A program made the translations under genes and the position numbers. The notes under the pieces were generated by a model. It saw only the letters and a program-made list of their open reading frames with translations. It did no database searches and had not been told where the DNA came from. This document shows positions 5,237 to 22,259 of a stretch of 64,000 nt of DNA, in pieces; positions within the stretch are counted from its first letter, which is position 1; the number at the start of each line of letters is the position of its first letter. This DNA comes from an uncultured Actinomycetota bacterium (GTDB lineage Bacteria; Actinomycetota; Actinomycetes; UBA12327). Where the stretch lies: assembly GCA_963850215.1 (NCBI GenBank), contig CAWKKI010000011.1, forward strand, positions 219,776 through 283,775, read 5' to 3'.

Positions 5237-6261
5237 CCACAGTCATCGACTCCTTCGTGGACTCGGCCGCCCACTCCACCGAGTCGCGTCGCGTGCTACG
5301 AGCCACACCGGACGCCACCGACAAGATCTTCCGGATGTCGGTGCGCGGCAGCGGCATCATCGTTCTCGCGATCATGACGATGGTCGGCGTCTTCTTGCTC
5401 GTTCGTGCGAGCGAGGCGCTGAAGGTCGCTGGGTGGTCGTTCTTCACGACTCAGAACTGGACTCCCGACGTCGGACACGGGCAGTTCGGCATCGTCGCGA
5501 TCATCACCGGCACGATCGCCATCGCACTCGTCGCGTTGTTCGTCGCCATCCCGCTGGCGATCGGAACCGCGCTCTATATATCGGAGTACGCGCCGCGCAA
5601 GTTCAAGCAGACGTTGGTCAGCCTCGTGGACCTGATGGCCGCTGTACCGAGCATCGTCTACGGCCTCTGGGGCGCGTTCTTCCTGCAGTACCGAATTACA
5701 GGCGTCTCGCGCTGGATCTCTACCTACTTCTCCTGGATCCCGATCTTCAAAGTGCCGGGGTCCGATCCGCACGATCCGGTGTCATCGGCGTCGGCCTACA
5801 CGTCGTCCATCTTCATTGCTGGACTCGTGGTCGGTCTGATGGTGACGCCGATCGCCACGTCGATCATGCGTGAGGCTTTCCGCCAGGCTCCGGTCGGCGA
5901 GCGCGAGGGCGCGTATGCGCTGGGTGCGACGCGGTGGGGCATGATCCGCTCGGTCGTCCTGCCGTTCGGAAAGGGCGGCATGATCGGCGGGCTGATGCTC
6001 GGTCTCGGTCGTGCGCTTGGCGAGACGATCGCGGTCGTCACGATCCTGTCGTTCATCGTGCACGTGCAGCCGCACGTCTTGGCCAACGGCGGTAGCTCGG
6101 TTTCCGCCTTGATCGCAACGACCTTCGGGTCGGCCTCGCACTTCGGCCTCTCCGCGCTAATGGCGGCGGGTCTCGCACTGTTCCTCTTGACGCTTGTTGT
6201 GAACTTCATCGCGTCCTCAATCATCGTGCGCAGCCGTTCGGGCGCAGCGACGGATTCATGA
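5233..6261 (+). CDS. pstC: Phosphate ABC transporter permease PstC
   Basis: ORF 5077..6261 was trimmed to ATG 5233. The 342 aa have about 6 TM helices and the EAA-type loop MREAFRQAPVGEREGAYALGATRWGMIRSVVLPFGKGGMIGG. Confidence 0.9.
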   Translation: MTTVIDSFVDSAAHSTESRRVLRATPDATDKIFRMSVRGSGIIVLAIMTMVGVFLLVRASEALKVAGWSFFTTQNWTPDVGHGQFGIVAIITGTIAIALVALFVAIPLAIGTALYISEYAPRKFKQTLVSLVDLMAAVPSIVYGLWGAFFLQYRITGVSRWISTYFSWIPIFKVPGSDPHDPVSSASAYTSSIFIAGLVVGLMVTPIATSIMREAFRQAPVGEREGAYALGATRWGMIRSVVLPFGKGGMIGGLMLGLGRALGETIAVVTILSFIVHVQPHVLANGGSSVSALIATTFGSASHFGLSALMAAGLALFLLTLVVNFIASSIIVRSRSGAATDS

Positions 6262-7661
6262 TGACCGCCGTGATGACCGCGCCCGCGCGGACCGAAGAGC
6301 ACGGGACCACCGTTGTCGACTTGCCTCCCACGTCGCGTCGACGTGAGGTCAGGCGCAATGGGCGCTCCTACCGTCGCAGCGACGTGCTTGCCATCGTCGG
6401 CGCGGGTGCCGCTGGCCTCAGCACCAGCACGCTGTTGTTCACGACGCTGGCGCCGTTCTCTGGCCCCGTTGCCTTCGTGATCATCACGTTCTTGCTCTTC
6501 ATCGCCTTCTACGCCGTCCTCGTCTCGATCGACGAGGATGGCCCGACAGTGCGCGACCGAGTCGCCATGGTCGTCATGCACGGCCTAGCGTTCATCTTGC
6601 TGTCGGCGCTCTGTTTGATCGTCGGATACACCGCGTTCCGCGCTTGGCGTGCGCTCATCCACTGGAACTTCTACACGCAGGACCTCTCGACAGCGGGACC
6701 GACGACACCCCTGAGTCACGGCGGAATCCTGCACGCGGTCGTCGGGACGCTCGAGATGATCACGATTGCGCTGATCCTCACAGTGCCGTTGGCGATCGCA
6801 TGCGCGGTTTACCTCAACGAAGTACCAGGACGATTCGCACGATTCATTCGCACGATCGTCGAGGCGATGACTGCGTTGCCGTCGATCATCGCTGGCCTCT
6901 TTATCCTGGCGACGTTCATTCTGATTCTCGGCGCACCAAAGTCGGGTCTCGCCGCAGCTCTCGCAATCAGCGTCATGATGCTGCCGATCATCATTCGCGC
7001 GGCCGATGTCGTCTTGCGCCTCGTCCCTGGAAGTCTCAAAGAGGCGTCGTATGCGACCGGCGCCAGTCAATGGCGCACGGTGTGGCACGTCACGTTGCCG
7101 ACGGCGCGCTCGGGCCTGGCGACTGCTGTGATTCTCGGTACTGCGCGCGGTATTGGCGAGACCTCGCCAGTCCTGCTCACCGCGGGTTACACCGGTTCGC
7201 TTGCGGTGAACCCGACGCACGGTCCGCAGGTGTCATTGCCGTTGCTGGCGTATCAGCTGAGCCGGTTCCCGCAGGCAACTCTGATCCAACGCGGCTTCGG
7301 CGCAGCAACCGTGCTGCTTGGACTCGTCTTCGTGCTCTTCATCATCGCTCGATTGATCGGTGGTCGCGGGCCTGACGCGTTGTCGCCGCGGCAGCAGCGG
7401 CGCCGCGCGCGCCAGTCCGCGAGCGACGCATCACGCATCGAGGCGCACGACCGGGAGTTGGTCGGGGTCGGCGCTCCGGTCGCGATCGTCGCGTCGCCGG
7501 TGGTCGAGCACGAACCGGAGTGGTTCACGCCCGTTGATGATGACCAGCCAGGCGCTCCGCCGTGGTTCGCGCCCTTGTCGACCCCACCGCCCCCGCCCCC
7601 GGCTGGCATGTACCCGTTCGGCGCGACTGAGCCATTCAAGAAGCCAAGAGGTGCGGAATGA
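6258..7661 (+). CDS. pstA: Phosphate ABC transporter permease PstA with a long Arg- and Pro-rich C-terminal extension
   Basis: An ATGA overlap with pstC is present. The PstA loop is LKEASYATGASQWRTVWHVTLPTARSGLATAVILGTARGIGETSPVLLTAG. About 105 extra C-terminal residues end in PPWFAPLSTPPPPPPAGMYPFG. Confidence 0.9.
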   Translation: MMTAVMTAPARTEEHGTTVVDLPPTSRRREVRRNGRSYRRSDVLAIVGAGAAGLSTSTLLFTTLAPFSGPVAFVIITFLLFIAFYAVLVSIDEDGPTVRDRVAMVVMHGLAFILLSALCLIVGYTAFRAWRALIHWNFYTQDLSTAGPTTPLSHGGILHAVVGTLEMITIALILTVPLAIACAVYLNEVPGRFARFIRTIVEAMTALPSIIAGLFILATFILILGAPKSGLAAALAISVMMLPIIIRAADVVLRLVPGSLKEASYATGASQWRTVWHVTLPTARSGLATAVILGTARGIGETSPVLLTAGYTGSLAVNPTHGPQVSLPLLAYQLSRFPQATLIQRGFGAATVLLGLVFVLFIIARLIGGRGPDALSPRQQRRRARQSASDASRIEAHDRELVGVGAPVAIVASPVVEHEPEWFTPVDDDQPGAPPWFAPLSTPPPPPPAGMYPFGATEPFKKPRGAE

Positions 7662-9438
7662 CCCGCGCCAGAAAGAACAAGGACTCCGTGCGCAAGCGTT
7701 CTCTTCGTCGTGTTCGCACAATCCAACTTGTCGCTGCGGCAGTGGTGCTCGGCGCGTTGGGCGCCGCGCTGTCCGCGGGAGTGGGCCCAACCTCAGCCCA
7801 AGCTGCCTCATACGTTCCGGTCAGTGGCGCTGGCTCGACCTGGAGCCAGGTGGCGATGGATGCCTGGCGAGTCGACGTCGCGCAGTACGGGATGCGCATC
7901 GACTTCTCCGGTACGGGTTCGTCCGACGGTCGCAACCAGTTCCGCAACGGCACGGTCGACTTCGCGAACTCCGACATTCCTTACGGTCTGAAGGACACGG
8001 GCGTTATCGACCCACCCCCAACCCGCGGCTACGCATACATGCCGATCGTCGCCGGTGGCACCACGTTCATGTACAACCTCGTCATCGGTGGACACCGCGT
8101 CACCAACCTGCGGCTGTCCGGTCAGACGCTGACGAAGATCTTCACCAACAACATCACCAAGTGGAACGACCCAGCGATCGCCGCTGACAACCCTGGCTTA
8201 AGCCTTCCTGCACTGAAGATCGAGGTTGTCGTTCGTTCAGATGGATCTGGTTCAACCGCACAGTTCTCCGATTGGATGGCGTCGCAGTACCCATCCTTGT
8301 GGAACGGCTACTGCAGCAAGGCTGGGCGCCCGTCGCCCTGTGGCACCACGTCGTTCTACCCGACAGTCTCTGGACGAGTTTCACCGCACAGAACGGTGAC
8401 ACGGGCGTGGCCGGGTACGTGCAGCAGTCGCAGAACGTCGGCTCTATCGGCTATGTCGAGTACGCATATGCGATCGCGGCGCGCTTCCCGGTTGCGAAGA
8501 TCCTCAACAAGGCCGGCTACTTCACTGAGCCGACGGCACAGAACGTTGCCGTGTCTCTCCTCAAGGCTTCGATCAACACGGACAAGACGTCGCCCGCGTA
8601 TCTCACTCAGGTCCTGTCCGGCGTTTACAACGACACGGATCCGCGAACTTATCCACTGTCCAGTTACAGCTACATGATCATTCCGACTGCGACAACGTCG
8701 ACGTTCACCGCCGCAAAGGGCTACACGCTCGCCGCCTTCGGCTATTTCTTCTTATGCCAGGGGCAGCAGCAGGTCGACCAGCTTGGCTACTCCGCGCTGC
8801 CGATCAACCTCGTGCAGGCTGGCTTCGCGCAACTCAAGCGGATCCCGGGCGCCGTGGCGCAGACGATCAACATCAAGGGCTGCAACAACCCCACTTTCTC
8901 CAGCAGCGGGGCGAACACGCTTGCCACGACTGCACCGCAGCCAGCCAAGTGCGACAAGCAGAGCAAGTACCAGTGCTCTACGGGCACTGCAGGTGACTTG
9001 AGTCCAACGCCCATCTTGGCTTCGGCGGTGCTCCCGGGCAGTGGCTCGGTGTCGAACGGTGGCACGGGCAACACCTCCGGTACCGGTTCATCAGGAACTA
9101 GCGGGTCGGGGACCAATGGCGCCGGAACAACGGGCGCCGGAACAACGGGCGCCGGAACAACGGGCGCCGGAACGACCGGCGGTACCGGCACGGCAGGAAA
9201 CGGGACAACCGGTGCGGCCGGCACAGGAGGCACGGCAGGTACTACTAACACTGCCGGATCCAACCTCGCCGGGGGAGCCGCGACATCAGACGTGGCGGCA
9301 ATCGCAGTCACCGTTCCTGGCGCAGGCGAGTCGAGCAGTGACATCGCGCTGATTGTTGTGGCCGGACTGCTGCTGCTCGGCATCACGCTGGGACCTCCCG
9401 CGATGTCAGTCGCGATGCAACGAAAGAACAAGGAATGA
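7658..9438 (+). pseudogene. PstS-family phosphate-binding protein, C-terminally membrane-anchored, with its reading frame broken by a 1-nt indel
   Basis: Frame-2 ORF 7658..8677 gives a signal peptide (SAQA/AS) and the PstS N-lobe blocks SGAGSTW, GTGSSDG, VDFANSDIP and VRSDGSGST. Frame-1 ORF 8272..9438 continues with the C-lobe (NGDTGVAGYVQQSQNVGSIGYVEYAYA). A Gly/Thr/Ser linker and a C-terminal TM helix plus QRKNKE follow. The halves join only if one nucleotide is added between 8358 and 8376 (YPTVSG|TSFTAQNGD). Confidence 0.75.
9118..9177 (+). repeat. 15-bp tandem repeat x4 (GGCGCCGGAACAACG) encoding (GAGTT)n in the linker of the PstS-like protein
   Basis: Three DNA-identical copies occupy 9118-9162. 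A fourth copy at 9163-9177 has 2 substitutions. Confidence 0.9.
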
Positions 9439-11924
9439 GCACGCGCGGTCAGCACCGCGGTCGTCGGGAGAGCTTCCTGCGTGCCATGACGCGCGCAGGT
9501 GTCGGTACTTCGCTGATCGCAATCCTGGGACTTGTCGCGCTCACTTTTGCGACTGGTCCTGGACCAGCGAACGCAGCATCCACCAAGGCCAAGCCGCTCG
9601 CGGCCAGTTCGGGTTCTGCGCTCACGAAGAGTGGGTCGGGATCCTTTTCAGATCTCAAGGTCACCCTGAGTCAGACGCAAGACCTCGTGAACCAGGTAAT
9701 CAATGTCACCTGGACGGGCGCAGCCCCAACACAGCCGGCGTACGGAGGCTTCGGCATCAACTATCTGCAGATCATGCAGTGCTGGGGGGACGACTCGTCG
9801 GGGCCCACTCGCGAACAGTGCGAGTTTGGCGGCAACCCAGGTAACACCCTTGGCGGGAGTTGGACGTCGTCGCGGCAGACCACGTACAGCGGGCTGGTGG
9901 ATCCGAACGAGACCTACACCGTGCCCCCGGGCAGTTTTGCCAACGCCTACGTCCCATTCGACTCGGTCACCGGAACCGTCGAAAAGGATGGGGCTAGCTC
10001 CTTCTTCGACTCGTACACGACCAACGAGATTGACTACGCGCGCACTCACTCCGACGGCTCCGGCCAGGAGTACTTCCAGATCGACACCGGTGTGGAGGCT
10101 TCAGGGCTCGGCTGCGGCCAGTCCGAGAAGGTCGGCTCGACCTCTAAGCCACGTGCGTGCTGGCTCGTGGTCGTCCCGCGAAATGACATTGAGGTCGACG
10201 GCAGTACCCGTGACGCCACCGGTGTGAACGAGATCGTGTCCTCGCCGTTGAGTGCGACCAACTGGGCAAAGCGCATTGTGTTTCCACTCGGTTTCACAGC
10301 CGTCGGGCAGAACTGCCCAATCTCGGCGATCGCCGAGCCGACGAGCGGGGAAGAGACTGCGCTCGAGGCCGTAACCCGATGGCAACCAACCCTGTGCGCG
10401 AAGAACGGACCGGTCTTCGGTTACACCCAGTTGTCGTCGGACGTGTCGCGCAGCGTCTTGGCCTCAACCACCCCAAATCTGCAGTTCCTGTCGAGACCGC
10501 TAGACGCGACGGACGGGACCCCTGCGGGCAAGCCGGTCTATGCACCCGTATCTGTGTCGGGAGTCTCGATCGCATTCCTGATTGAACGACAGACGTCGCC
10601 AACCGCAGATCCAGCAGTGAAGGCTTCCGATGGGGTTCGAATGGGGACCCTGAATCTGACTCCGCGGCTTGTCGCGAAACTTCTGACTGAGTCCTACCGC
10701 GAGGCCGTTACCTCAGACGACGCGACTTACCTCGCGAACAACCCGCTCGACTTGACGCGCGATCCAGAGTTTCTTGCTCAAAACCCCGACTTTTCAACGT
10801 TGAAGTACCTCAACGGCATCTCGAGCATCATCGTGCCTACGGGTACGGCAGATGCGTACTACCAACTGTGGCAATGGATTTGGGCAAACGCTGACGCGCG
10901 CGCCTTCCTGCAGGGCAAGGCCGATCCCTACGGCGAGACCGTCAATCCCCACTACAAGACCCTGACTTTTCCTGCGGACAACTTCCCGAAGGCTGAACCG
11001 GCCTGCAGGACCTTCCCGTTGTCGACCATCTCCCGCCCGCCCCTCTGTGAGTTGGACGCGTTCCCGTACGCGATCAGCATGCACGCGGGAGCGCAGGCAG
11101 TCAGCGGCGGTAGCGACCTATCCAAGGACCTGTGGGACCCGACTGCGACACCGCCCTCCTACAAGGCATCGCCACCGCAGATCGAAGGCAACCGGGGACT
11201 CCTCGTGCTCGCGGACACCCCGACCGCAATTCGATACGGCCTGAATATGGCGAGCCTGCAGAATTCAGATGGTCAGTTCGTGGCCCCCACCACCACGAGC
11301 ATCACTGCGGGTTTGAAGACGTTCAAGGCGGATTCTGCTGGCGTACTGGAGCCGGTGGCGGCGACGAAGGTCAGCGGCGCATACCCGCTGACGACCATCA
11401 CCTACGCGGCAACTGCACCGTCAAAACTCACGCCTGCGTCCGCGCATGACTACGCAACTTTCCTGCGCTATGCAATCGGTTCAGGTCAAACCCTCGGCGT
11501 CGCGCCGGGCTCTCTCCCGTACGGCTACGTGCCGCTCACGTCTGGGCTAAAGGCAACAACTGCAACGGTCGCGAACGAACTCGCTGCCGTAAAGGCCACG
11601 AGTGCGACGCCGGCGTCGACGCCCACGACTGGCAACACGTCGGGCGAACTAGGTGACTCGTCAGGTGGCTCGACCGGTGACTCGTCGTCCGCTACCTCTC
11701 AGACAACTTCGAACGTTGCTGCGCCTACCGGAACCGGTAGCGCGACGCAACCAACCAGCACGTCGCCCGCTGGCGACGCGCTCTCCCTGACCCCCGCGGC
11801 CGTCCGCTCGCCATCGGTTCCGATCGGTGCTGTGCGATTCGCGCTCGTGGGCGCACTACTCATCGGAGGCATCGCGGCCGGCGCCGGTCCGTTGCTGATG
11901 AGGGCTTCACAGGTGGCGGTGTGA
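9435..11924 (+). CDS. Large secreted, C-terminally membrane-anchored protein with an unassigned N-terminal region and a divergent PBP-like C-terminal region
   Basis: 829 aa, with an ATGA overlap with the upstream gene. It has a signal peptide (GPANA/AS) and a ~300-aa Cys-containing region with no recognised family. PBP-like blocks are PVYAPVSVSGVSIAFL, LNLTPRLVAKLLT and AYPLTTITYAA. A Ser/Thr/Gly-rich linker and a terminal TM helix (FALVGALLIGGIAAGAGPLLM) follow. Confidence 0.8.
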   Translation: MSTRGQHRGRRESFLRAMTRAGVGTSLIAILGLVALTFATGPGPANAASTKAKPLAASSGSALTKSGSGSFSDLKVTLSQTQDLVNQVINVTWTGAAPTQPAYGGFGINYLQIMQCWGDDSSGPTREQCEFGGNPGNTLGGSWTSSRQTTYSGLVDPNETYTVPPGSFANAYVPFDSVTGTVEKDGASSFFDSYTTNEIDYARTHSDGSGQEYFQIDTGVEASGLGCGQSEKVGSTSKPRACWLVVVPRNDIEVDGSTRDATGVNEIVSSPLSATNWAKRIVFPLGFTAVGQNCPISAIAEPTSGEETALEAVTRWQPTLCAKNGPVFGYTQLSSDVSRSVLASTTPNLQFLSRPLDATDGTPAGKPVYAPVSVSGVSIAFLIERQTSPTADPAVKASDGVRMGTLNLTPRLVAKLLTESYREAVTSDDATYLANNPLDLTRDPEFLAQNPDFSTLKYLNGISSIIVPTGTADAYYQLWQWIWANADARAFLQGKADPYGETVNPHYKTLTFPADNFPKAEPACRTFPLSTISRPPLCELDAFPYAISMHAGAQAVSGGSDLSKDLWDPTATPPSYKASPPQIEGNRGLLVLADTPTAIRYGLNMASLQNSDGQFVAPTTTSITAGLKTFKADSAGVLEPVAATKVSGAYPLTTITYAATAPSKLTPASAHDYATFLRYAIGSGQTLGVAPGSLPYGYVPLTSGLKATTATVANELAAVKATSATPASTPTTGNTSGELGDSSGGSTGDSSSATSQTTSNVAAPTGTGSATQPTSTSPAGDALSLTPAAVRSPSVPIGAVRFALVGALLIGGIAAGAGPLLMRASQVAV

Positions 11925-12012: not shown

Positions 12013-13032
12013 GTGAATTTCAAGACAGCTCGACGCCTTGCGGTGGCCGCTGCCGCCGTGGCCGTCGTCGCCGGGGCGATCAGCGTGGGCTCTGCTTCCG
12101 CTGATCCGTCCGGCACTCCGACCTACCGTGAGTTTGCGGGCGTCGGTTCCGACACGGTGCAAGGCGTCTACAACGCGTTCAGCAACAACATCACCATCAG
12201 CAGCACGAAGGTCATTGGCTCGTATGACGCCACTGGCTCTGCCACGATCCAGACCAAGGCGACCGGCTGCTCGGCCGTCACGCGTCAGAACGGTTCGGGC
12301 GCTGGCAAGACCGGCCTGCTCGCGAGCCTCAACGCCAACGACGGTTGCGTCCAGTTCTCGCGTTCCTCCAGCGCGCCCTCCGGTACAACTTCGCCAAGCC
12401 TGACCTACGTCCCGTTCGCCACTGACGCTGTGACCTACATGGTCACGGCCACAAGCAACATCCCGCGCCAGCTCACGCAGGCGCAGCTCGTCAGCATCTA
12501 CGCGTGCGGTGGCGACCCGACCATCAAGGCGCTCGTGCCCCAGGCCGGTTCCGGTACCCGCTCATTCTGGGAGTCCAAGGTCAGCATCACCGACTCGAAC
12601 GTTGACTCGGTTGCCTACCCCTGCCTCAAGGACACGGTCAACTCCCAGAGCGTTGAGGAGCACGACGGTCGCGTCCTCGACGACAACTCCATCGCGCCGA
12701 TCTCCGTTGCGCAAAACATTGCTCAGGAGGAAGGCACGATCAGCGACATTCGTGGCCAGGCCGTTCTCGGCCAGATCTCGAACGCCGCTGGCACGTCCTA
12801 CGCCCTGCCGATCACGATGAACTCAGCAATTCCGTTCACTCGTGAGGTCTACAGCGTGATCCCGACCTCGGTCATCGGTGTGTCAACAGGCACGACTAAC
12901 GGCACCTCGAACGCGGATTACAACACCGTGTTTGTCGGCGGTTCGTCGCTGGTTTGTGCACAGAGCCTCACCATCCAGGCGTACGGATTCGCGATTGACC
13001 CAGCCTGTGGAACCACCAGTCAGCACACCTGA
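12013..13032 (+). CDS. Secreted PstS-like / type-2 periplasmic-binding-fold substrate-binding protein
   Basis: 339 aa. AAGGAG lies 8 nt upstream of GTG. It has a signal peptide and the blocks GVGSDTV, NGSGAGKTGL, VQFSRSS and VPQAGSGTRSFW. No anchor was recognised. Confidence 0.8.
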   Translation: MNFKTARRLAVAAAAVAVVAGAISVGSASADPSGTPTYREFAGVGSDTVQGVYNAFSNNITISSTKVIGSYDATGSATIQTKATGCSAVTRQNGSGAGKTGLLASLNANDGCVQFSRSSSAPSGTTSPSLTYVPFATDAVTYMVTATSNIPRQLTQAQLVSIYACGGDPTIKALVPQAGSGTRSFWESKVSITDSNVDSVAYPCLKDTVNSQSVEEHDGRVLDDNSIAPISVAQNIAQEEGTISDIRGQAVLGQISNAAGTSYALPITMNSAIPFTREVYSVIPTSVIGVSTGTTNGTSNADYNTVFVGGSSLVCAQSLTIQAYGFAIDPACGTTSQHT

Positions 13033-13075: not shown

Positions 13076-14638
13076 GTGTGGAATAAAAAGATTGCGCGGA
13101 CGTTCGCCGCGGTCAGTGCTACGGCACTGATCGTTGGCGGCGCCGCGATCGCAGCATCATCTGCTGCAAACGCCCTCACCGACGGCACGGCCGTCATTAC
13201 CGGTGGAACGACGACGACCTCGTCGCTCGTCCTCAACACCAACGGAACATGTGCAGACCCGAATGCCACGAACGTCGTGGTCAAGATCAGCGGTACCGGC
13301 TTCCCGGCCGGTGGCGCAAACGTCGTGGGCAACAGCCCGGCAAGCAACTTCGCTAGCGGTTCGAACTACTCGATTCCGATCAGCAACACGCTCCAGGTGA
13401 TCGGGAACGCGCAGTCTCCGGCCGTCGTCTACTCCGGCACCTACACGTTTGACGTGGTTTGCCGTACTGCGCTGAGCTCGACGTCCCTCGGAGACTTCTT
13501 GGGGACCATCACGTTCAGCACCCCCACCACATTTAGTGCCGACCCGGCCACGCCGATCGCCACTGGCACCACGTTGGCTCTCGGCACTGCAAGCCCGATC
13601 GCCTTCGGCACCTCGGAGACACTGACCGCCACCGTCACCGGTGGAGCCTCCGGTTCTGTGCAGTTCCAGGACAACCTGACCAACATCGGTTCACCGGTGG
13701 CCGTGAACGCCTCCGGCGTTGCTACCTACACGACCTCAGCGCTGGATGCTGGGTCGCACTCGCTCACCGCGGTGTTCACTGGCTACAACCCATCCAGCGT
13801 CACCGGCTCGACGTCGACTGCGCAGGACCTCACCGTCAACCAGACGACTAGTTCGACTGCCCTGAGCTTCACTCCCGCTTCAGGTGCGGACTCGAACACC
13901 TCGCTCGGCCTCACTGCAACGATCACACCGTCCGCCGCGGCGGGCACCGTTCAGTTCGTTGACGGTTCGACCAACATCGGCGGTCCGGTGAACGTCGTCA
14001 GCGGCGTGGCCTCCACGTCGGGGCTCTTCGCCGAGGGTGCTCACACGTTCCACGCGGTGTTCACACCTAGCGACCCCACCAATGTCGCGGGTTCGAACGA
14101 CGTCCAGCCGTACACCGTTTTGCACTACGGCGGCGTTACCGCTACTGACAACATCCAGACAGAGGTTCCCGCCGGTGGTCTCGTGATCAGCGTCGCGAGC
14201 CCGGGCGCCCAGGACCTCGGTCCGATGGCGCTTAACGGCACCAGCAACCTCTTGAACGTCACCGGCACTCTGCTCAACGTCACGGTGACTGACACCCGCG
14301 CTGGCACTCACGCTGGCTGGACTGCGTCCGGCATCGTCAGTGACTTCGCTGGTCCGACGGCATTCGCGATTGCTGGCGCCAACCTTGGTTGGACTCCCGC
14401 GGTCGTGAGCCACTCGCTGAACCAGACAGTCACCGCTGGACCGGCAGTTGCGTCGGCCCTTGGCGTCTACACGTCCGGCGAGACCGGCGGCCTGCACTCC
14501 ACGCAGACCCTCGCCTCTTCGGCTGCGTCGCCGAACTCGAACGGCACCGCGGTGCTGAACGCAGCGCTCAACCTGAACGCGCCCACTGACACCCCAGCGG
14601 GCACGTACGTCGCAACCCTCACGCTGACCGCCATCTGA
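13076..14638 (+). CDS. Secreted surface protein: shared N-domain + three bacterial Ig-like repeats + WxL-like C-terminal domain
   Basis: 520 aa with a signal peptide. Residues ~30-155 are the paralogous N-domain. The Ig-like repeats follow the pattern TLTATVTGGASGSVQFQD...GSHSLTAVFT. The C-terminal ~190 aa carry VTVTDTRAGTHAGWTASG and ANLGWTPAV, and end in AGTYVATLTLTAI. Confidence 0.8.
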   Translation: MWNKKIARTFAAVSATALIVGGAAIAASSAANALTDGTAVITGGTTTTSSLVLNTNGTCADPNATNVVVKISGTGFPAGGANVVGNSPASNFASGSNYSIPISNTLQVIGNAQSPAVVYSGTYTFDVVCRTALSSTSLGDFLGTITFSTPTTFSADPATPIATGTTLALGTASPIAFGTSETLTATVTGGASGSVQFQDNLTNIGSPVAVNASGVATYTTSALDAGSHSLTAVFTGYNPSSVTGSTSTAQDLTVNQTTSSTALSFTPASGADSNTSLGLTATITPSAAAGTVQFVDGSTNIGGPVNVVSGVASTSGLFAEGAHTFHAVFTPSDPTNVAGSNDVQPYTVLHYGGVTATDNIQTEVPAGGLVISVASPGAQDLGPMALNGTSNLLNVTGTLLNVTVTDTRAGTHAGWTASGIVSDFAGPTAFAIAGANLGWTPAVVSHSLNQTVTAGPAVASALGVYTSGETGGLHSTQTLASSAASPNSNGTAVLNAALNLNAPTDTPAGTYVATLTLTAI

Positions 14639-14720: not shown

Positions 14721-15857
14721 ATGAACGAACGATCTAGTGAACGGAAACGAGACGTGAAGCACCGCTTGCTCCGCCGTACGCGTGCAGGGGCTGCATTGTT
14801 CGCAGCACTCGCCTGTGTGCTCGCGTCGAGTGCACCCGCCTGGGCGTCCTCGCCCACCCCGTCTCCCAGTGCATCGCCCTCACCGACATCGAAGGCGGTG
14901 CCAGCGACGTTCGGGCTACAACCGGCGACAGCTGGCAAGCCCGATGCGCGCTCAGATTTCTCCTTCCAAGCCGAACCCGGCGCGACGGCGTCTGACGAAG
15001 TAGCGATCCAGAACTTCGCGTACAAGCCGATCACCCTGCAGCTCTACTCAGCCGACGGCTATAACACCTCCGACGGCGGCTTTAGCGTCCTACCGGCTGG
15101 TGACAAGTCGAGCGAGGTCGGGGCTTGGGTTGTGTTGCCCCGTGCTTCGGTGTCGATTCCTTCTCGCGGCAAAGTGATCGTGCCGTTTACGATCCGCGTG
15201 CCTGCTGCGGCCCTTCCGGGCGACCACGAAGGCGGCATTGTCGCATCTCTGACGACCTACGGGACTCGGCCAAACGGCGAGCAATTCAAGGTATTCAACC
15301 GCGTCGGCGATCGCGTGCTAGTCCGCGTGACTGGCGCCCTCACTGCGCATCTCGCGTTGAGCAACGTGCATGCCAGTTATACGGGTTCGCTTAATCCGGA
15401 CGGCAAGGGCTCTGTCCGAGTTTCCTACTCCGTCACAAACACGGGCAACGTGGTGTTGGGCGCCACCCAACTCGTCACCGTGAAAATGCTCTTCGGCTCT
15501 TCCGCCCGGACCACGGGGCTTCCGGTCTTGCCTGGCCTGCTTCCGGGTAACGGTGTCTCGCAAACGGTCACGCTGCCTGGAGTTTGGCCTCAACTCCGTG
15601 GCAAGGCCACGGTAATCATCCAGCCGTTGGCGCCTGCTGGCGTCAGCGCGCCATCTGCCTCAGAAGCTGTTGCGACCACGTCGTTCTGGGCTATCCCGTG
15701 GTCGACGATCGCGATCCTCCTGCTTATCGCGCTAGCCATGGCGGGCTGGTGGTACTGGCGCCATCGCCGAGCAACCTCGGGCGGCTCCTCGCGTGGCAAG
15801 CGCGCGCGCGGGAAGGTCCCGCCTACTCCCCAACCACAGAAGGAATTGGTGTCGTGA
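14721..15857 (+). CDS. DUF916/DUF3324-like (WxL-interacting-protein-like) surface protein with a C-terminal TM anchor
   Basis: 378 aa with a signal peptide. The N half (FGLQPA...DFSFQAEPGATASDEVAIQNFAYKPITLQLYSADGYN...GDHEGGIVASL) matches the DUF916 pattern. A second beta-rich half follows, then the TM helix ILLLIALAMAGWWYW and a basic tail. Confidence 0.8.
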   Translation: MNERSSERKRDVKHRLLRRTRAGAALFAALACVLASSAPAWASSPTPSPSASPSPTSKAVPATFGLQPATAGKPDARSDFSFQAEPGATASDEVAIQNFAYKPITLQLYSADGYNTSDGGFSVLPAGDKSSEVGAWVVLPRASVSIPSRGKVIVPFTIRVPAAALPGDHEGGIVASLTTYGTRPNGEQFKVFNRVGDRVLVRVTGALTAHLALSNVHASYTGSLNPDGKGSVRVSYSVTNTGNVVLGATQLVTVKMLFGSSARTTGLPVLPGLLPGNGVSQTVTLPGVWPQLRGKATVIIQPLAPAGVSAPSASEAVATTSFWAIPWSTIAILLLIALAMAGWWYWRHRRATSGGSSRGKRARGKVPPTPQPQKELVS

Positions 15858-16717
15858 ACTTCCGCAGGTACCGGCGTGTTCAGGCCGGATTACTAACGAG
15901 CGTCGTGGCTGTCGTGGTCATGGGCGGCGTTGTCGCCACTGCAAATGCCGCGCCAGTGCCCGCGCAATCGTCGATGAGCACTCTCTCGTTCAGCCCGGCA
16001 TCGGGCAACGACCAGACCCGCATGTCTGTCACCACGTCAGGGCCCTGCTCGGCAGGAACGAATCTGATCGTTCGCGTCTATGGGTACGGGTTCCCAACAC
16101 AGGGTCAGAACGTCGTGGGAAACACGGCCGTGTCGACCTTCGTTGAGACTGCAAACGGTGGTCGGGTAGTGCCCCTTGAAGACACGATGCGCAGTTTCGC
16201 GGCGCAGCAGGCGACCCCGTTTCTCCTGAAGGGCAAGTACACGTTCGGGCTGCGTTGCATCCAGCCGCTTCAGTGGGACACCCCGCTCGACCTGTTCACG
16301 GGTGCGATCAACTTCACCTCGGCCGGCGCTTACTCGGCGCTTCCAGCATCGGCCGCGAGCGTGCCCAAGGGTGCCAACAATGTGCCCGTCGCCACGACGA
16401 CCCCCAAGTCGTCGTCCACGACGCCAGCGAAATCGGCGACTCCTTCTTCAAGTCCGACGGCGGCTGTGAGTTCGACGCCAGCTAGCAGCGCCGCACCAAC
16501 AACGTCGGACGCTGGCTCGGTTCCAGGCGCCTCCTCGGGCGCCCAGGCGGCCGGGGCACCCGTCGCCTCAACCTCCCTGTCGGGTGGCGGTGGCTCGATG
16601 GCGTGGCCGCTCCTACTGGCGTTGGTCGCCATCGCGCTCATTGCCGCTGGCGTCTTCTGGTATTTCCGGCGCGAGCCGGCGTCCGCAAATCCGTCCGCGC
16701 ACCGCACGAGAAAGTGA
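15854..16717 (+). CDS. Secreted protein: shared N-domain + Ser/Thr/Pro/Ala-rich linker + C-terminal TM anchor
   Basis: ORF 15584..16717 was trimmed to GTG 15854 (GTGA overlap). It has a signal peptide (ATANA/AP). The N-domain carries GYGFPTQGQNVVG and YTFGLRC. The anchor is a TM helix LLLALVAIALIAAGVFWYF plus RRE. Confidence 0.75.
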   Translation: MNFRRYRRVQAGLLTSVVAVVVMGGVVATANAAPVPAQSSMSTLSFSPASGNDQTRMSVTTSGPCSAGTNLIVRVYGYGFPTQGQNVVGNTAVSTFVETANGGRVVPLEDTMRSFAAQQATPFLLKGKYTFGLRCIQPLQWDTPLDLFTGAINFTSAGAYSALPASAASVPKGANNVPVATTTPKSSSTTPAKSATPSSSPTAAVSSTPASSAAPTTSDAGSVPGASSGAQAAGAPVASTSLSGGGGSMAWPLLLALVAIALIAAGVFWYFRREPASANPSAHRTRK

Positions 16718-17946
16718 CCCCCGCAGTGAACATCTCCGACACGGCGAAGACCACTACCCGCACGACTGTGCGCCGGAGCAGGTCCGTGATGGCCGCTGGC
16801 ATCGTCTCGCTCGCCACGGCGATCGGCTTTGCCGGCGTTGCGTTGAACATGCCTGCCGCCTCGGCGGCTTCCGAGGGAGCACTGACAATCGCTCCCGCAA
16901 GCGGCACGGATACCTCATTGCTTACGGCGACGACTACAAGTACTTGTAGTGATCCGTCGGCTGACCACTTTTCAATCTCGATCTCGGGTAGTGGTTTCAC
17001 CGGTCAGGTCAATGTCGTCGGTACGTCCAGTCTCACCACGGTCACCTCGGGGAACGGCTATTCAGCTCCCATCCAGAACACGTTGGCCGTGATCGCTTCG
17101 CTCCAGTCGCCAGCAGTCGTCTACACCGGCGACTACGTCCTCGACTTCAAGTGCCGCAGTGCCATTAGCTCCACGAGTCTCGGCGACTTCACCGGAACGA
17201 TCCACTTCACCGACCCGCACACGTACACGTTCGTAGCACCAACGACGAGCCCTTCGACGTCGCCGTCAACGAGCCCCTCAACTAGCCCTTCGACGTCGCC
17301 GTCAACGAGCCCGTCAACAAGTCCTTCGACGAGCCCCTCAACCAGCCCGTCGACAAGTCCGTCGACGAGCCCCTCAACCAGCCCCTCAACCAGCCCATCG
17401 ACGTCGCCGTCCACGACCCCGTCCGACAGCACATCTGCGAGTGCAAGCCCCACCGACTCGACGAGTCAAATCACCTGTTCCGCGACCGATGACATGGGCA
17501 CACCGCTTGGCGACAACCCGACACTCGACCCGGGCCAGAACGTCAGCGTGACCGCCACGGGCTTTGCTGCGGCTGCCTCAGTTGATGTGACGGTGCATTC
17601 GACGCCGCAGGATCTCGGCACTGTTACAGCGGACTCCACGGGCACCGTCACTTACGCGTTCCTTGTGCCAACGACCCTCGAGGCGGGAGCGCACACTCTG
17701 GTGTTCACCTCGGGATCAACGACCGGGACGTATGCCTTTGTCGTCAGCACGACCGCGGCTACCACGGCGGCAGCCGACGGCGGTACGACCGATGGTGGGA
17801 CGACGGACACCGCTGGGTCGACGCTGCCTCACACCGGGGCTGATGTGGTCATCTACCTGCTTGTGGCTCTCATCCTGATGGTCACTGGAGTGGGTTTCCT
17901 CGCGTGGAGCGGTGGGCTCGTGACATCAAACGGACGGCACCGGTGA
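16714..17946 (+). CDS. LPXTG cell-wall-anchored protein: shared N-domain + (STSP)n linker + Ig-like domain + LPHTG sorting signal
   Basis: GTG 16714 forms a GTGA overlap, and GTG 16726 is an alternative start. It has a signal peptide (AASAAS) and an N-domain with GSGFTGQVNVVG and YVLDFKCR. The C-terminus is LPHTG + hydrophobic helix + GRHR. Confidence 0.8.
   Translation: MTPAVNISDTAKTTTRTTVRRSRSVMAAGIVSLATAIGFAGVALNMPAASAASEGALTIAPASGTDTSLLTATTTSTCSDPSADHFSISISGSGFTGQVNVVGTSSLTTVTSGNGYSAPIQNTLAVIASLQSPAVVYTGDYVLDFKCRSAISSTSLGDFTGTIHFTDPHTYTFVAPTTSPSTSPSTSPSTSPSTSPSTSPSTSPSTSPSTSPSTSPSTSPSTSPSTSPSTSPSTTPSDSTSASASPTDSTSQITCSATDDMGTPLGDNPTLDPGQNVSVTATGFAAAASVDVTVHSTPQDLGTVTADSTGTVTYAFLVPTTLEAGAHTLVFTSGSTTGTYAFVVSTTAATTAAADGGTTDGGTTDTAGSTLPHTGADVVIYLLVALILMVTGVGFLAWSGGLVTSNGRHR
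17245..17418 (+). repeat. Coding (Ser-Thr-Ser-Pro)n array of about 14 units of 12 nt with synonymous-codon variation
   Basis: The translation is TSPSTSPSTSP...STTPS. Ser is coded by AGC/TCG/TCA/AGT/TCC and Pro by CCT/CCG/CCC/CCA. Only short stretches are DNA-identical. Confidence 0.9.
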
Positions 17947-18947
17947 TCACGGTGCTTGAGCGCACGTTGGTAGCCATCGCTTCGGGGTCGCTTCTCGCCG
18001 GCGCCTTGGTGTTGCAGGCTGGGGCGGCCCACGCCGTTTCGGTCGGCAGTCTTACCGTTGCCCCAACCTCGGGCAGCGACGCGTCTCTCTTGACGTTGGC
18101 GACCGGAAGTACCTGCACGGATTCGTCTGCCACCTACGTCTCGGTTGCGATCAGCGGCTCCGGATTCGCTGCGGGTGGCACGAATGTTGTGGGCGCTGCC
18201 CAGATCAGTGACCTCACTCATTCGGCAACGGGGTATGTGATCCAGGTCAGCAACACGCTGGCCGCGATCGCGTCACTTCAGCATCCCGCGGTCACTTATG
18301 TCGGCGACTACACCTTCGACGTCAAATGTCGGTTGGCTCTGGACTTCACCAGCCTGGGCGACTTCACAGCAACGATCCACTTCAGCGATCCGCACACGTG
18401 GTCCGTGGTGAGCGGCACTGCGCCGCACTTCACCATCGCGGCGCACCTCACCGGAACCGCTCGTGTTGGCTACACCTCGGGTTGCTCGGCGTCGGTCACT
18501 GGCTCGACCAGCCTTCAATACGTATGGCTGCGCAACGGCGTCACCATCTCAGGCGCCACGCACTCCACCTACGTGGTGCAGCCGGCCGACAATGCCCACA
18601 CCTTGGCATGCGAGCTGATCGCCAAGAACGCTGCCGGTTCCACGACGAGCAAGGCCGCGGCCCGTTATGTCGAGCCCGGCTATCTGCACAACGTGGTGCA
18701 TCCGACTCTCTCCGGTCACGCCATCCACGGCTACACGTTGGCCTGCCGAGCGGGTGCCTGGTCACCGGCACCCAGCCATTACGCATATGGCTGGCTGCTC
18801 AACGGTGTTCACATCCGAGGCGCGGCGGCAAGCACGTTGAAGTTGGCGACCACCTACAAGGCGCACACGATCGCTTGTCAGGTCACTGCGTCAAAGACCG
18901 GATACCTCAGCGTCACAGTGCGAACGAGCGCGGTGAAGGTCAGCTGA
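17943..18947 (+). CDS. Secreted protein: shared N-domain + two Ig-like repeats, no anchor recognised
   Basis: ORF 17904..18947 was trimmed to GTG 17943 (GTGA overlap). It has a signal peptide (QAGAAHA) and an N-domain with GSGFAAGGTNVVG and YTFDVKCR. Two ~80-aa repeats follow the pattern G..L.C...W...P..YAYGWLLNG..I.GA...Y......H.IAC.V.A. Confidence 0.75.
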   Translation: MITVLERTLVAIASGSLLAGALVLQAGAAHAVSVGSLTVAPTSGSDASLLTLATGSTCTDSSATYVSVAISGSGFAAGGTNVVGAAQISDLTHSATGYVIQVSNTLAAIASLQHPAVTYVGDYTFDVKCRLALDFTSLGDFTATIHFSDPHTWSVVSGTAPHFTIAAHLTGTARVGYTSGCSASVTGSTSLQYVWLRNGVTISGATHSTYVVQPADNAHTLACELIAKNAAGSTTSKAAARYVEPGYLHNVVHPTLSGHAIHGYTLACRAGAWSPAPSHYAYGWLLNGVHIRGAAASTLKLATTYKAHTIACQVTASKTGYLSVTVRTSAVKVS

Positions 18948-18949
18948 CC

Positions 18950-20035
18950 GTGTCCCTTGACTCCGAGGCCGCTCTGGCCGTTGGTACTGAACCGGTAGCG
19001 CCGGTCGCCAACGGCCAGTCCGGTGCTGTGCCGTCCAACGGGACTCACGTAACAGAACTCGCGGCGCCCAACCCCGCGGAGATGGTCGACCTGCCGCACC
19101 CGGACCTCGGCACGCCGAGCACCGAGTTGCAGGTCGATGCCGACGATCATCTAGTCGATGACGACGACGAGGAGTCGACGGCCGCCCCACGCCGCGACGG
19201 GCTCTGGATCATGGGCGTCGCCCTGACCACACTCGGCGTCATCGTGCTCGGCTTTCTGGCTGCATTCCTGGTGATCGGCCCGATCAAGTACCACCGTGCG
19301 CAGACCGTGGAGTACGCGCAACTGCGCTACGAACTCGCGAACTCGATCGCGCCGGTCGGTCAAACCGACTACAACGGCAAGCTTCTGACCCCTGGCACAC
19401 CAGTGGCTCTGCTCAGCATCCCGGCCATCAAGCTGACGACGGTTGTGTCCGAGGGCACGACTGGCGAGATCCTGCAGAACGGGCCTGGACATCGGCGTGA
19501 CAGCGCGATGCCAGGGCAGCCCGGAGCCAGCGTCATCTATGCGCGTCGGCTCGGCTTCGGCGGTCCGTTCGGATCTCTGCCTTCGTTGAAGCCCGGTGAC
19601 CCGATCTACGTGACTACCGGACAAGGCGTCTCGACGTACACCGTTGCGGACGTGCGCTACGCCGGGGACAAAGAACCGTCGGTGCAGATCAATCACGGCT
19701 TGCTCAGTCTGGTTACCGCCGGCGGCTCGCGCTTCCTGCCCAACGGAGTTGTAGCCGTTGACGCGAATCTGACGTCGACACCGCAGCAGGCGCCCGGTGC
19801 CGTGATCGGCTCTAACGCCCTGAGCCGCTCGGAAGGCCCGATGCAGGGCGATCCGAGTGCTTGGGTCGGGCTCGTGCTCTGGGGTGAGCTACTCGTTGGC
19901 GCGACGGTCGCCATGGTGTGGGCGCGCAAGCGATGGGGGATATGGCAAGCCTGGATTGTTGGCGTTCCCGTAGTCGTTCTCCTGGGAGTTCTGGTTGCCA
20001 ACCAGATCACCACCTTGCTACCGAACATGCTGTGA
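18950..20035 (+). CDS. Sortase-fold homologue lacking the catalytic His, Cys and probably Arg (cysteine-free), with one N-terminal and two C-terminal TM helices
   Basis: ORF 18326..20035 was trimmed to GTG 18950, 2 nt after the previous stop. The blocks GPGHRRDSAMPGQPGASVIYARRLGFGGPFGSLPSLKPGDPIYV and LLSLVTAGG align by eye to the sortase GH-PG / IAGHR / GAPF / GD and TLxTC blocks. There is no Cys anywhere in the 361 aa. Confidence 0.75.
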   Translation: MSLDSEAALAVGTEPVAPVANGQSGAVPSNGTHVTELAAPNPAEMVDLPHPDLGTPSTELQVDADDHLVDDDDEESTAAPRRDGLWIMGVALTTLGVIVLGFLAAFLVIGPIKYHRAQTVEYAQLRYELANSIAPVGQTDYNGKLLTPGTPVALLSIPAIKLTTVVSEGTTGEILQNGPGHRRDSAMPGQPGASVIYARRLGFGGPFGSLPSLKPGDPIYVTTGQGVSTYTVADVRYAGDKEPSVQINHGLLSLVTAGGSRFLPNGVVAVDANLTSTPQQAPGAVIGSNALSRSEGPMQGDPSAWVGLVLWGELLVGATVAMVWARKRWGIWQAWIVGVPVVVLLGVLVANQITTLLPNML

Positions 20036-20041: not shown

Positions 20042-21043
20042 ATGACTAACGAGGGTGAAATGACAGCCACCGACGACTTCTCCATCGCACTGCCCGACGC
20101 AAACGGGCATGCAGCGAACGGCCTCGCCGCGACCCTGCCGGCATACGCGGGAGCCCCAGCGATGACGGTCATCCCCGGACAGCCGATGCCACACGTGGCA
20201 CCGCCGGTGCCGCAGCAACCCGACGAGGTCGTGCTTCCGGGCGCTCGGCCCAACGGTGTTCGCGGCGCGATCGGAGACCTCGACGCACGCTCGATCTCTG
20301 CCTGGTTCGGCGATCACAAGGTGCTCGACCGAGTCTCGTTGCACATGCCGAGTGGCGAGGTAACCGCGCTTATTGGACCTTCCGGTTGCGGCAAGTCGAC
20401 GTTCCTGCGCACGTTGAATCGCATGCACGAGTTGATCCCGTCGGCATCCCTGGCCGGCGAGGTTCTCCTCGACGGCCAGGACATCTACGCGCCCGATCGG
20501 CGCCTCACCGAGGCACGACGACAGATCGGGATGGTCTTTCAACGCCCCAACCCTTTCCCCGCGATGTCCATTTACGACAACGTGATCGCGGGGCTGAAGC
20601 TCACCGGCAAGAAGGCGTCGACGGCTGAGAAGGACGGAATTGTCGAGACGCACTTATGAAGGCCGGGCTGTGGAAGGAAGTCAAGGACCGGCTGCGGCAG
20701 CCAGGCGGTGGACTTTCCGGTGGTCAGCAGCAGCGGCTGTGCATCGGACGGGCCCTTGCGTATCCAGCCGCGCGTGCTGCTTATGGACGAGCCATGTTCG
20801 GCGCTCGACCCGACGTCGACGCGCCGAATCGAGCAGACGATCGTCGAGCTTCGCGAAGAAGTGACGATCGTCATCGTCACGCACAACATGCAGCAGGCCG
20901 CGCGCGTCTCAAGCCGATGTGCCTTCTTCCTGGCGGAGGCCGGCACGCCAGGCGTGATAGTCGAGCACGGCTCAACCGAGGCGATGTTCGAAACTCCGCG
21001 CGACCCGCGCACCGCCGACTACGTGAATGGGCGCTTCGGTTAG
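20042..21043 (+). pseudogene. pstB: Phosphate ABC transporter ATP-binding protein PstB, interrupted by two compensating frameshifts
   Basis: Frame 2 (20042..20659) carries Walker [10 protein letters not shown] and ends at TGA 20657. Frame 1 (20656 to ~20760) carries [31 protein letters not shown]. Frame 2 resumes from 20762 with [33 protein letters not shown] and YVNGRFG. There is also an unusual ~75-aa Pro-rich N-terminal extension. Confidence 0.8.
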
Positions 21044-21546: not shown

Positions 21547-21580
21547 TTGTGTCAGTGGCGGCAGAAGTCATGAGACGAGC

Positions 21581-22054: not shown

Positions 22055-22109
22055 GGCTGCTCCAGTGGGTCGGCGTGGGGACCAGTGTGGCTGTCCGGCA
22101 TCTAAGACG

Positions 22110-22132: not shown

Positions 22133-22259
22133 CGAGAAAGTCTCACTAGCGTTGGGTCCGTGGCACAGACCAGCCTGGCACCCGATTCGGATGCCGCCGC
22201 CGTTCGTACGCGCTCGCGTTTCTGGTCTGGACTGACCCGCGCACGAGCGGCTGAGCGTC

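Follow-up and report, generated by a model that had tools for sequence, protein, structure and literature searches.

A sortase-fold pseudoenzyme encoded in an atypical Pst-type importer operon of Actinomycetota

Sortases are known from textbooks as transpeptidases with a catalytic cysteine, and they serve as drug targets. Here, we describe a protein of their superfamily that possesses no cysteine at all. It is denominated pSrt and is encoded at positions 18950..20035 on the forward strand of a 64,000-nucleotide stretch of DNA from an uncultured Actinomycetota bacterium (contig CAWKKI010000011.1; the whole stretch is called the window, and all coordinates refer to it). The gene belongs to an operon for a Pst-type ATP-binding cassette (ABC) importer, where it directly precedes the gene of the PstB-type ATPase. 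In the initial annotation, made by eye, the protein had been regarded as a pseudo-sortase that acts as receptor or scaffold for a nearby protein with an LPXTG-type sorting signal (LPHTG).

The sortase-fold protein and its catalytic positions

The features of pSrt, all on the + strand, are the following (aa, amino acids; TM, transmembrane; AF2, AlphaFold2; pLDDT, predicted local distance difference test; dN/dS, ratio of non-synonymous to synonymous substitution rates):

18950..20035, +: pSrt, 361-aa sortase-fold membrane protein without cysteine and without the catalytic histidine (translation, Pfam, AF2, Foldseek, orthologue P0001)
18950..19204, +: disordered acidic cytoplasmic N-terminal tail, aa 1-85, poorly conserved (pLDDT ~50, dN/dS 0.51, varying tail length)
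19205..19339, +: TM helix 1 (~aa 86-110), extended as extracytoplasmic stalk helix to aa 130 (AF2 helix 83-130)
19367..19789, +: sortase-like beta-barrel, ~aa 140-280 (Pfam match, model strands 151-274, Foldseek match to 4d70)
19490..19525, +: conserved beta3/beta4-loop motif GPGHRRD(S/T)xxPGQxG (family alignment, alignment to GLGHYANTARLGQKGN of 5go5)
19544..19546, +: Arg199 in place of the catalytic His (alignments to 5go5, 4d70 and 5uus)
19718..19720, +: Ala257 in place of the catalytic Cys, LVT-A versus TLxT-C (profile alignment to SrtC2 8t28)
19748..19750, +: Val267, predicted in place of the catalytic Arg, on beta8 and followed by the invariant Asp271-Ala272 (model hairpin geometry)
19859..20017, +: C-terminal TM hairpin, aa 304-329 and 331-356 (AF2 helices, hydropathy)

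The open reading frame (ORF) starts with a GTG codon at 18950, and its translation confirms the earlier statement that there is no Cys among the 361 residues. The Pfam family Sortase (PF04203, gathering score 26.6) matches aa 155-256 with 59.7 bits (E=3.1e-16). Among NCBIfam models the top match is class_E_sortase (NF033747) with 76.5 bits, by which the cut-off of 160 is not reached. A sequence search of the PDB retrieved sortases exclusively, with members of class E (5go5, 5go6, 5uus, 5cuw) and class D (4d70) at the top. The AF2 model, which was computed from 52 homologues, has a mean pLDDT of 84.5 and values above 90 for aa 85-360, and the 50 best Foldseek matches of this model in the PDB are without exception sortases, with target-normalised TM-scores of 0.81 for 4d70, 0.71 for SrtE 5go5 and 0.67 for SrtE1 5cuw. 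Model and Foldseek thus agree in the eight-stranded beta-barrel that defines the sortase fold, and together with the Pfam score they bear out the fold proposed in the initial annotation.

Three membrane helices, one N-terminal and two C-terminal, are found in both the AF2 model and the hydropathy profile, as had been read from the sequence before. The hydropathy peak at aa 83-115 represents TM helix 1, with Arg81 and Arg82 on the cytoplasmic side. The C-terminal hairpin carries a conserved cytoplasmic turn (RWGxWQxW) and ends with the motif LLPNLL. According to the positive-inside rule the N-terminal tail and the RKRW turn lie in the cytoplasm and the barrel lies outside. The acidic stretch noticed earlier in the tail is present at aa 63-75 (DADDHLVDDDDEE). 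Homologues of pSrt span 260 to 495 aa, and the length of their N-terminal tails varies.

All three positions of the sortase triad are substituted. HMMER places VIYARRLGFGGPF of pSrt over AVAGHRRTYGDPF of SrtE (5go5), and the alignments with 4d70 and 5uus are similar; "IYARR" thereby comes to lie over "VAGHR" of sortases, so that Arg199 stands for the catalytic His. The family profile "GrLtLvtAd" is aligned with "LLTLVTCT" of SrtC2 from Actinomyces oris (8t28), which puts Ala257 at the place of the catalytic Cys. Both substitutions had already been called by eye. The C-terminal third of the domain gave no sortase match when it was compared by sequence with solved sortases, and the position of the catalytic Arg was therefore mapped by hairpin geometry. 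In the model a tight hairpin of beta7 (250-260) and beta8 (263-274) sets Gly266/Val267 across from residue 257, and Val267 is predicted to occupy the position of the catalytic Arg; this agrees with the strand (NGVVAVDANL) that the initial annotation had named. For comparison, the catalytic residues at these two positions in SrtE1 are Cys320 and Arg329 (PMC5148588).

The substrate-reading loop is altered as well. In SrtE1 the sorting signal is touched by the beta3/beta4 and beta6/beta7 loops, and in the former of them the class-E tyrosine, Tyr229, reads the Ala of LAXTG (PMC5148588). In pSrt this specificity position is held by Arg182, as "GPGHR" lies over "GLGHY" of 5go5; among 121 homologues Arg is found in 97 and Leu in 16. 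Since the thiol is absent, thioester transpeptidation by the known sortase mechanism should be impossible for the encoded protein, which is in line with what had been concluded from the missing Cys before. This protein is a sortase-superfamily pseudoenzyme and ought not to be classed among the sortase enzymes.

Family-wide loss of the triad under purifying selection

Search of 5.8 billion proteins with pSrt gave 158 matches. The 120 listed among them share 40-84% identity with the query and originate from Streptomyces, Kitasatospora, Streptacidiphilus, genera of the Micromonospora group, Microbacteriaceae, Propionibacteriales and metagenome-assembled genomes (MAGs). For the counting of alignment columns two sets were used, an alignment of 121 sequences and 148 diverse representatives from a 50%-identity library. 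The column of the catalytic His contains Arg (120) or Lys (1) in the former and Arg (145) or Lys (3) in the latter, i.e., a basic residue of this kind in 269 of 269 sequences. The column of the catalytic Cys shows Ala 99, Gly 13, Thr 6, Ser 2 and Val 1 in the 121-sequence alignment and Ala 108, Ser 20, Thr 8, Gly 5, Val 5 and Leu 2 among the 148 representatives, with no Cys in either set. Position 267 of the catalytic Arg is occupied by Val, Thr, Leu, Ile or Ala in the 121 sequences. Wherever a Cys occurs in these 121 homologues it is located within a TM helix and never in the barrel. Orthologues with the His/Cys/Arg triad, which the initial annotation had named as a finding that would reduce pSrt to a decayed gene, were not seen in either set.

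Other parts of the protein are strongly conserved. In the beta3/beta4 loop of the 121 homologues His181 is kept in 115, Arg183 in 117 and Gln190 in 119 sequences, and Pro188, Gly189 and Gly192 are present in all 121. The same is true for Asp271, and the pair Asp271-Ala272 on beta8 is invariant. Further invariant residues of the family are TGQG at the turn between beta5 and beta6 as well as Arg236 and Asp240, which open the beta6/beta7 loop. The membrane part is nearly invariant at Trp329, Gly330, Trp335, Pro340, Pro358 and Asn359.

When 1.84 billion cluster representatives (50% identity) were scanned in full with HMMER, 713 sequences were obtained at E<=1e-30 and 10,604 at E<=1e-3, the latter including true sortases. 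In a scan with one genome per species, relatives of pSrt were detected in the genomes of at least 582 actinobacterial species. This species scan returned 80 loci, all but one of them labelled Actinomycetota. The exception (L026 on contig CAVPCF010000151.1) comes from a MAG labelled "Candidatus Melainabacteria" and comprises a complete actinobacterial operon; its contig is probably mis-binned, since a Pseudonocardiaceae MAG (L022) encodes operon proteins with near-identical C-terminal tails. Family members are found in databases under the names "sortase", "class E sortase", "sortase A" and "sortase domain-containing protein".

The closest relative of pSrt (P0001, locus L084) has 83% identity and is colinear over 100% of the length. 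Between the two, dN/dS is 0.10 overall, 0.03 for aa 86-361 and 0.51 for the disordered N-terminal tail. Because of the value of 0.03 at aa 86-361, the folded and membrane parts of pSrt are under strong purifying selection. Judged from all these sequences, the pSrt family appears to represent conserved actinobacterial pseudoenzymes derived from sortases, with a loss of the triad that extends over the whole family.

By sequence and fold pSrt is closest to the class E sortases, i.e., SrtE1 of S. coelicolor (5cuw), SrtE of S. avermitilis (5go5), SrtF of C. diphtheriae (5uus) and SrtE of T. fusca (9iok). Class E enzymes are housekeeping sortases specific for LAXTG. They share with pSrt the beta-barrel, the N-terminal membrane anchor, the outward orientation of the domain, the actinobacterial distribution and, in the first two thirds of the domain, the motifs GxGH...PGxxG...G(H/R)R..YGxPF..L..L..GD. 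In contrast with them pSrt has no triad, Arg in place of the specificity Tyr, a score far from the NCBIfam cut-off of class E, much shorter beta6/beta7 and beta7/beta8 loops, and two additional C-terminal TM helices with conserved Trp, Gly and Pro. The genomic context differs too, since class E genes are located near those of their substrates or in the crgA/pknB region and the pSrt gene lies in a pst-type operon.

The Pst-type operon and its anchored proteins

In the window the pSrt gene cluster runs in one direction throughout and is located after a tRNA-Leu gene. Its further genes, all on the + strand, are listed below with the evidence for each (homologous loci carry numbers such as L084):

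4805..5236, +: small conserved ORF, 143 aa, first in the operon (by-eye alignment to the first operon gene of L085 and L086)
5077..6261, +: pstC (TIGR02138, 251.7 bits versus cut-off 196.45)
6258..7661, +: pstA, extended at N- and C-termini (TIGR00974, 198.3 bits versus cut-off 193.45)
7658..9438, +: PstS-like binding protein, PstS' (PBP_like_2 and TIGR00975 in two frames)
9435..11924, +: 829-aa protein with PstS fold (AF2 pLDDT 81.6, Foldseek)
12013..13032, +: 339-aa secreted protein (homologues in most loci)
13076..14638, +: Big_3_5 surface protein with WxL-like C-terminus (Pfam Big_3_5, 75.5 bits)
14721..15857, +: DUF916/WxLIP_PGBD-like protein with C-terminal TM anchor (PF06030, 26.8 bits versus gathering score 27.3)
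15854..16717, +: 287-aa surface protein with Ser/Thr/Pro linker and C-terminal TM anchor (translation)
16783..17946, +: LPHTG sorting-signal protein with PSTS repeats, start codon uncertain (Gram_pos_anchor, 19 bits versus gathering score 20)
17904..18947, +: 347-aa secreted protein without anchor, ending 2 nt before the pSrt start (translation)
20042..21043, +: PstB-type ATPase with N-terminal extension of ~75 aa (three frame pieces, alignment to the intact 294-aa orthologue of L084)

The ATG of pstB at 20042 follows the stop codon of pSrt after 6 nt, which confirms the earlier reading. This vicinity had been taken for a mere neighbourhood of two genes. Comparison of 83 homologous loci by tblastn with the proteins of the window gave a different picture: at practically all loci the pSrt gene is part of a conserved operon of the form pstC-pstA-pstS'-...-pstB. 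A PstB-type ATPase is encoded directly 3' of the pSrt gene in 79 of the 83, and the remaining four end at contig ends. In most loci the distance from the pSrt stop to the pstB start is between -4 and ~50 nt, and the stop and start codons often overlap. Homologues of the 339-aa protein were found in 72, of the 829-aa protein in 68, of PstS' in 59, of PstA in 54 and of PstC in 47 loci, where the counts of the last three are limited by the 10-kb flank of the analysed sequences. The WxL-like protein has homologues in 52 loci and the DUF916-like protein in 46, and LPHTG-like sequences occur in 31. It had been proposed to survey whether homologues without Cys always neighbour pst or WxL-like genes; the linkage with pstB holds, whereas that with the WxL and DUF916 genes is confined to the loci just counted. 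The order of genes is small ORF, pstC, pstA, PstS', 829-aa protein, 339-aa protein, variable WxL/DUF916/LPXTG genes, pSrt and pstB. When the 829-aa protein was used as query, the operon from the small ORF to the Sortase-ABC_tran pair was recovered in three of three genomes (Hamadaea tsunoensis, Streptomyces sp. NBC_00885 and a Pseudonocardiaceae isolate). Culturable carriers of the operon include Streptomyces griseoruber, Dactylosporangium fulvum, Hamadaea tsunoensis and Micromonospora. No active sortase was found within 10 kb at any of the 83 loci, and no other sortase-like ORF was found in the window.

The variable middle part of the operon can be missing or displaced. Minimal clusters of Streptomyces (e.g., L028, L044, L055, L056, L063-L065, L072-L077 and L083) consist of pstC-pstA-pstS'-829-339-pSrt-pstB alone and have no WxL, DUF916 or LPXTG genes. 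In loci of the Micromonospora/Plantactinospora type (L006-L008, L016, L017, L021, L046 and L069) the WxL-like and DUF916-like genes are located 3' of pstB, at ~12.2-14.3 kb of the locus sequences, and because of this downstream position the surface module appears to be mobile relative to the core operon. pSrt belongs to the constant inventory of an atypical operon for a Pst-type phosphate ABC importer and is tightly linked to pstB.

The ABC system appears to be of the Pst type, as PstB of the intact relative (L084) comes close to the cut-off of TIGR00972 (341.8 bits versus 343.2). As in canonical PstSCAB systems, pstC and pstA pass the equivalog cut-offs of NCBIfam; the putative binding proteins resemble PstS in family profile or in fold. 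The differences from canonical Pst concern the gene order (C-A-S...B instead of S-C-A-B), the lack of phoU, the presence of two PstS-fold proteins with C-terminal TM anchors and without lipobox Cys, the 339-aa protein, five to ten extra genes of surface proteins and the sortase-fold gene before pstB. For pstC of the window the true start is probably Met53 (~nt 5233). Upstream of the operon only one good half-site of a PHO box was seen, and matches throughout the window are at chance level.

Three apparent frameshifts interrupt the operon of the window. Compared with L084, its pstB contains a 1-nt deletion near 20650 (GAGA-CGCAC) and, 111 nt apart, a 1-nt insertion near 20761 (in GCGTATCC). The original frame reaches a TGA at 20657, and the correct PstB sequence including LSGGQQQRL is kept in the shifted frame; dN/dS of the repaired pstB is 0.09. 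The third frameshift, near nt 8370, divides PstS' into an N-terminal half that corresponds to PstS profile positions 2-158 and a C-terminal half corresponding to 169-311. With PBP_like_2 these halves obtain 98.1 and 32.8 bits, respectively, TIGR00975 stays below its cut-off on each of them, and PstS' homologues at other loci are contiguous. Of the other genes of the window, five large ones were checked and are intact. The frameshifts may stem from errors of assembly or from inactivation that happened very recently.

Both PstS' and the 829-aa protein have a cleavable signal peptide without lipobox Cys, a low-complexity linker (Gly/Thr in PstS'), a C-terminal TM helix and a basic tail. Over 54 loci the consensus of the PstS' anchor is ..gW.LrhTLM.LAg.LLLGLvvGPPL.aR..RR and that of the 829-aa protein TPGxPlGxiRwxLL..L..G..aa.aGPxLLR..rR. 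The 829-aa protein is composed of an N-terminal beta-rich domain, a PstS-fold domain, the linker and the anchor. Its PstS fold at ~residues 300-720 matches PstS3 of M. tuberculosis (4lvq, Foldseek TM-score 0.77) and also PstS of E. coli, and all its homologues are annotated as "hypothetical protein". In architecture the two binding proteins look like sortase substrates that lack only the LPXTG pentapeptide. The beta-rich domain of the 829-aa protein (aa 60-290) is confidently predicted and contains several invariant Cys and Trp residues; it gave no match in the PDB.

In the window the LPHTG protein is, as reported before, the only one with an LPXTG-type signal and lies two genes upstream of pSrt. 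It possesses a clear LPHTG motif, TM segment and basic tail despite the sub-threshold score of Gram_pos_anchor. As a partner of pSrt, which the initial annotation had seen in it, it is not constant. The gene adjoining pSrt upstream encodes a protein ending in L[PA]x[TS][GAS], TM helix and basic tail in ~24 of 75 loci (mostly LASTG or LPxTG, a couple of them probably false positives), a TM anchor without such motif in 16 and no anchor in 35. A looser scan for an LPXTG/LAXTG plus TM protein next to pSrt gave ~27 of 73 loci. LPXTG proteins are few in actinobacterial genomes, and on this general knowledge an adjacency of ~30% seems far above chance. Sortase substrates are therefore recurrent guests of the operon. 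They cannot explain the conservation of pSrt because the minimal clusters keep pSrt without them.

Some further properties of the operon proteins and their surroundings were observed. A small ORF of ~125-165 aa opens the operon in every locus examined (5326-5706 in L085, 5381-5872 in L086). It has no signal peptide and shows the repeated pattern W.L.G.NNRELGRS... / W.W.L..DG..VA.S.R.Y..REC; the window copy shares RFLFV...NNRELGRS...W.W.L...REC with L085 and L086 and has no match in Pfam. For the 339-aa protein of the window no family was matched in Pfam and none in the PDB, and its homologue in L085 has a weak match to PBP_like_2. The WxL-like end of the Big_3_5 protein (520 aa) was judged by eye, and its homologue in L087 has a weak WxL match. 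This protein and the 287-aa, LPHTG and 347-aa proteins have a related N-terminal domain (...SG.D.S...T..TC.....V.V.ISG.GF......VVG...). The four differ in their endings, which are WxL-like, a TM anchor, the LPHTG signal and none, respectively. The genes at 15854-18947 look like a paralogous set of surface proteins with swapped modes of attachment. The tRNA-Leu gene is situated immediately upstream of the operon at 4567-4641 on the - strand, and other tRNA genes of the window are those for Lys (36847), His (48679) and Arg (51078). After pstB two tandem genes of AhpC/Bcp-type peroxiredoxins follow on the opposite strand (21073-22291, -), likewise in L084 (2247-3230).

A non-catalytic role at the importer and its alternatives

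That pSrt is a pseudoenzyme and that it belongs to this operon can be said with very high confidence. For the reading as a whole, which includes these two parts and sees in pSrt a non-catalytic accessory of the Pst-type importer that probably binds the C-terminal anchors of the operon proteins, the chances are about even. The protein would cleave nothing and would make use of the remnant of the sorting-signal groove, i.e., the loops beta3/beta4 and beta6/beta7, which are highly conserved and surround the dead active site, together with the bundle of its three membrane helices. In this way it would hold the juxtamembrane and TM parts of the C-terminal anchors of secreted proteins of the operon. 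Its chief clients would be the two PstS-like binding proteins, which have signal peptide, linker, TM helix and basic tail without LPXTG, and which would thereby be kept assembled at the PstCA translocator. Proteins with LPXTG or LAXTG signals would be additional clients where they are present, as in the window. The conserved polar residues of the beta3/beta4 loop (GPGHRRD..PGQxG), the TGQG turn, Arg236, Asp240 and Asp271 would be consistent with the groove remnant as binding site, which we infer by analogy with active sortases. Taken by itself, the specific role in binding anchors is somewhat less likely than not.

Several points weigh against this assignment. The C-terminal third of the barrel is diverged, and the groove may have been remodelled for a non-peptide ligand. 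The strikingly Arg-rich set of conserved residues (Arg183, Arg199, Arg236, Arg251) would also be compatible with the binding of phosphate, a wall polymer or another anion. Moreover, if the frameshifts were real, the transporter would be broken in this bacterium and pSrt would still be intact, which would argue for a function independent of transport.

A more far-reaching version, which must be regarded as rather unlikely, sees in the dead sortase an obligatory structural subunit of a new class of Pst-type importers. It would capture anchors resembling sorting signals without cleaving them and so dock the PstS paralogues, the C-terminal anchors would replace lipid anchors, and WxL or LPXTG proteins would sometimes be docked too. 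There is a precedent for dead enzyme folds acting as adaptors in the degenerate LytM factors EnvC and NlpD, which are coupled to the FtsEX ABC system. Both cases concern a conserved extracytoplasmic enzyme fold that lost its catalytic residues and has a genetic tie to an ABC system. The folds are different, however, FtsEX is not an importer, and the pSrt family is known from sequence and model alone.

The idea of the initial annotation, by which pSrt would serve as LPXTG receptor or scaffold for the LPHTG protein and the WxL/DUF916 (Csc-like) module with the pst genes as unrelated neighbours, is improbable. It could be based on the LPHTG gene two positions upstream, on the WxL-like and DUF916-like genes of the window and on the recurrence of LPXTG/LAXTG proteins just upstream of pSrt in other loci. 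Yet about two thirds of the loci have no LPXTG-type protein adjoining pSrt, the minimal Streptomyces clusters retain pSrt without any gene of the module, Micromonospora and Plantactinospora have the WxL/DUF916 genes downstream of pstB, and Arg stands in place of the class-E Tyr by which LAXTG is read; the invariant partners are the pst genes and not the LPXTG genes. The Csc/WxL clusters of lactobacilli and enterococci, with CscA (DUF916), CscB/C (WxL) and CscD (LPXTG), are resembled by the variable middle of the operon with scores at or just below the Pfam thresholds, and in contrast with those clusters the WxL/DUF916/LPXTG module is optional here. To our knowledge Csc clusters have neither a sortase-like gene nor a link to an ABC importer. 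Little probability is also left for a sensor or regulator in which the Arg-rich former active site binds phosphate or an anionic wall polymer and the three-helix bundle transmits the signal to PstCA, PstB or the cytoplasmic tail, in a role analogous to that of PhoU. The near-invariant basic residues around the dead site (His181, Arg183, Arg199, Arg236, Arg251), the strongly conserved cytoplasmic turn of the TM hairpin, the constant position of the gene directly before pstB and the fact that no phoU-like gene was called in the operons examined would fit such a function. However, there is little surface for signalling to PstB, because the cytoplasmic parts are either tiny (a turn of ~6 residues) or unconserved like the N-terminal tail, and the search upstream of the operon gave no convincing PHO box.

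Even less can be expected from an enzyme with another nucleophile (e.g., Thr256 or Ser257 with His181 and Asp271) that processes or attaches the anchored operon proteins, which we rate as very unlikely. Thr or Ser is present at position 256 in 268 of 269 sequences and at 257 in 36 of 269, His181, Asp184 and Asp271 are conserved, and the conserved juxtamembrane motifs of the PstS-like anchors could be sites of processing. On the other hand, Thr256 corresponds simply to the Thr that sortases keep in their TLxTC motif, position 257 is mostly Ala or Gly and so offers no conserved nucleophile, and His181 corresponds to the non-catalytic His of the "GH" motif of classes D and E. According to established knowledge no sortase-fold enzyme that works without Cys is known to us (PMC5148588). 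The suggestion that the gene is just a class E sortase gene which has decayed in this genome and no longer functions has practically negligible probability. It can point to the three frameshifts of the same operon (~8370, ~20650, ~20761), but it was rejected in view of the intact ORF of pSrt, the substitutions shared by the whole family, the low dN/dS of the folded and membrane parts and the wide distribution among species.

A full-text literature search on pseudo-, inactive or Cys-less sortases, on sortases together with pstB or WxL and on class E sortases revealed nothing on the pSrt family or its operon, both of which are, as far as found, undescribed. This would be, within the same limit, the first family of sortase pseudoenzymes to be described and a second, non-catalytic use of the sortase fold. 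Hundreds of records that carry the name "sortase", "class E sortase" or "sortase A" in databases would then be functionally mis-annotated, with the consequence of inflated sortase counts in actinomycetes. The operon with its Pst-type importer, C-terminally anchored PstS paralogues and optional wall-associated module bears on the question of how phosphate is captured through a thick cell wall in actinobacteria. If pSrt were indeed a docking subunit, an ABC importer would here be built in a manner not seen before, and pSrt would be the first pseudoenzyme among the sortases that is functional.

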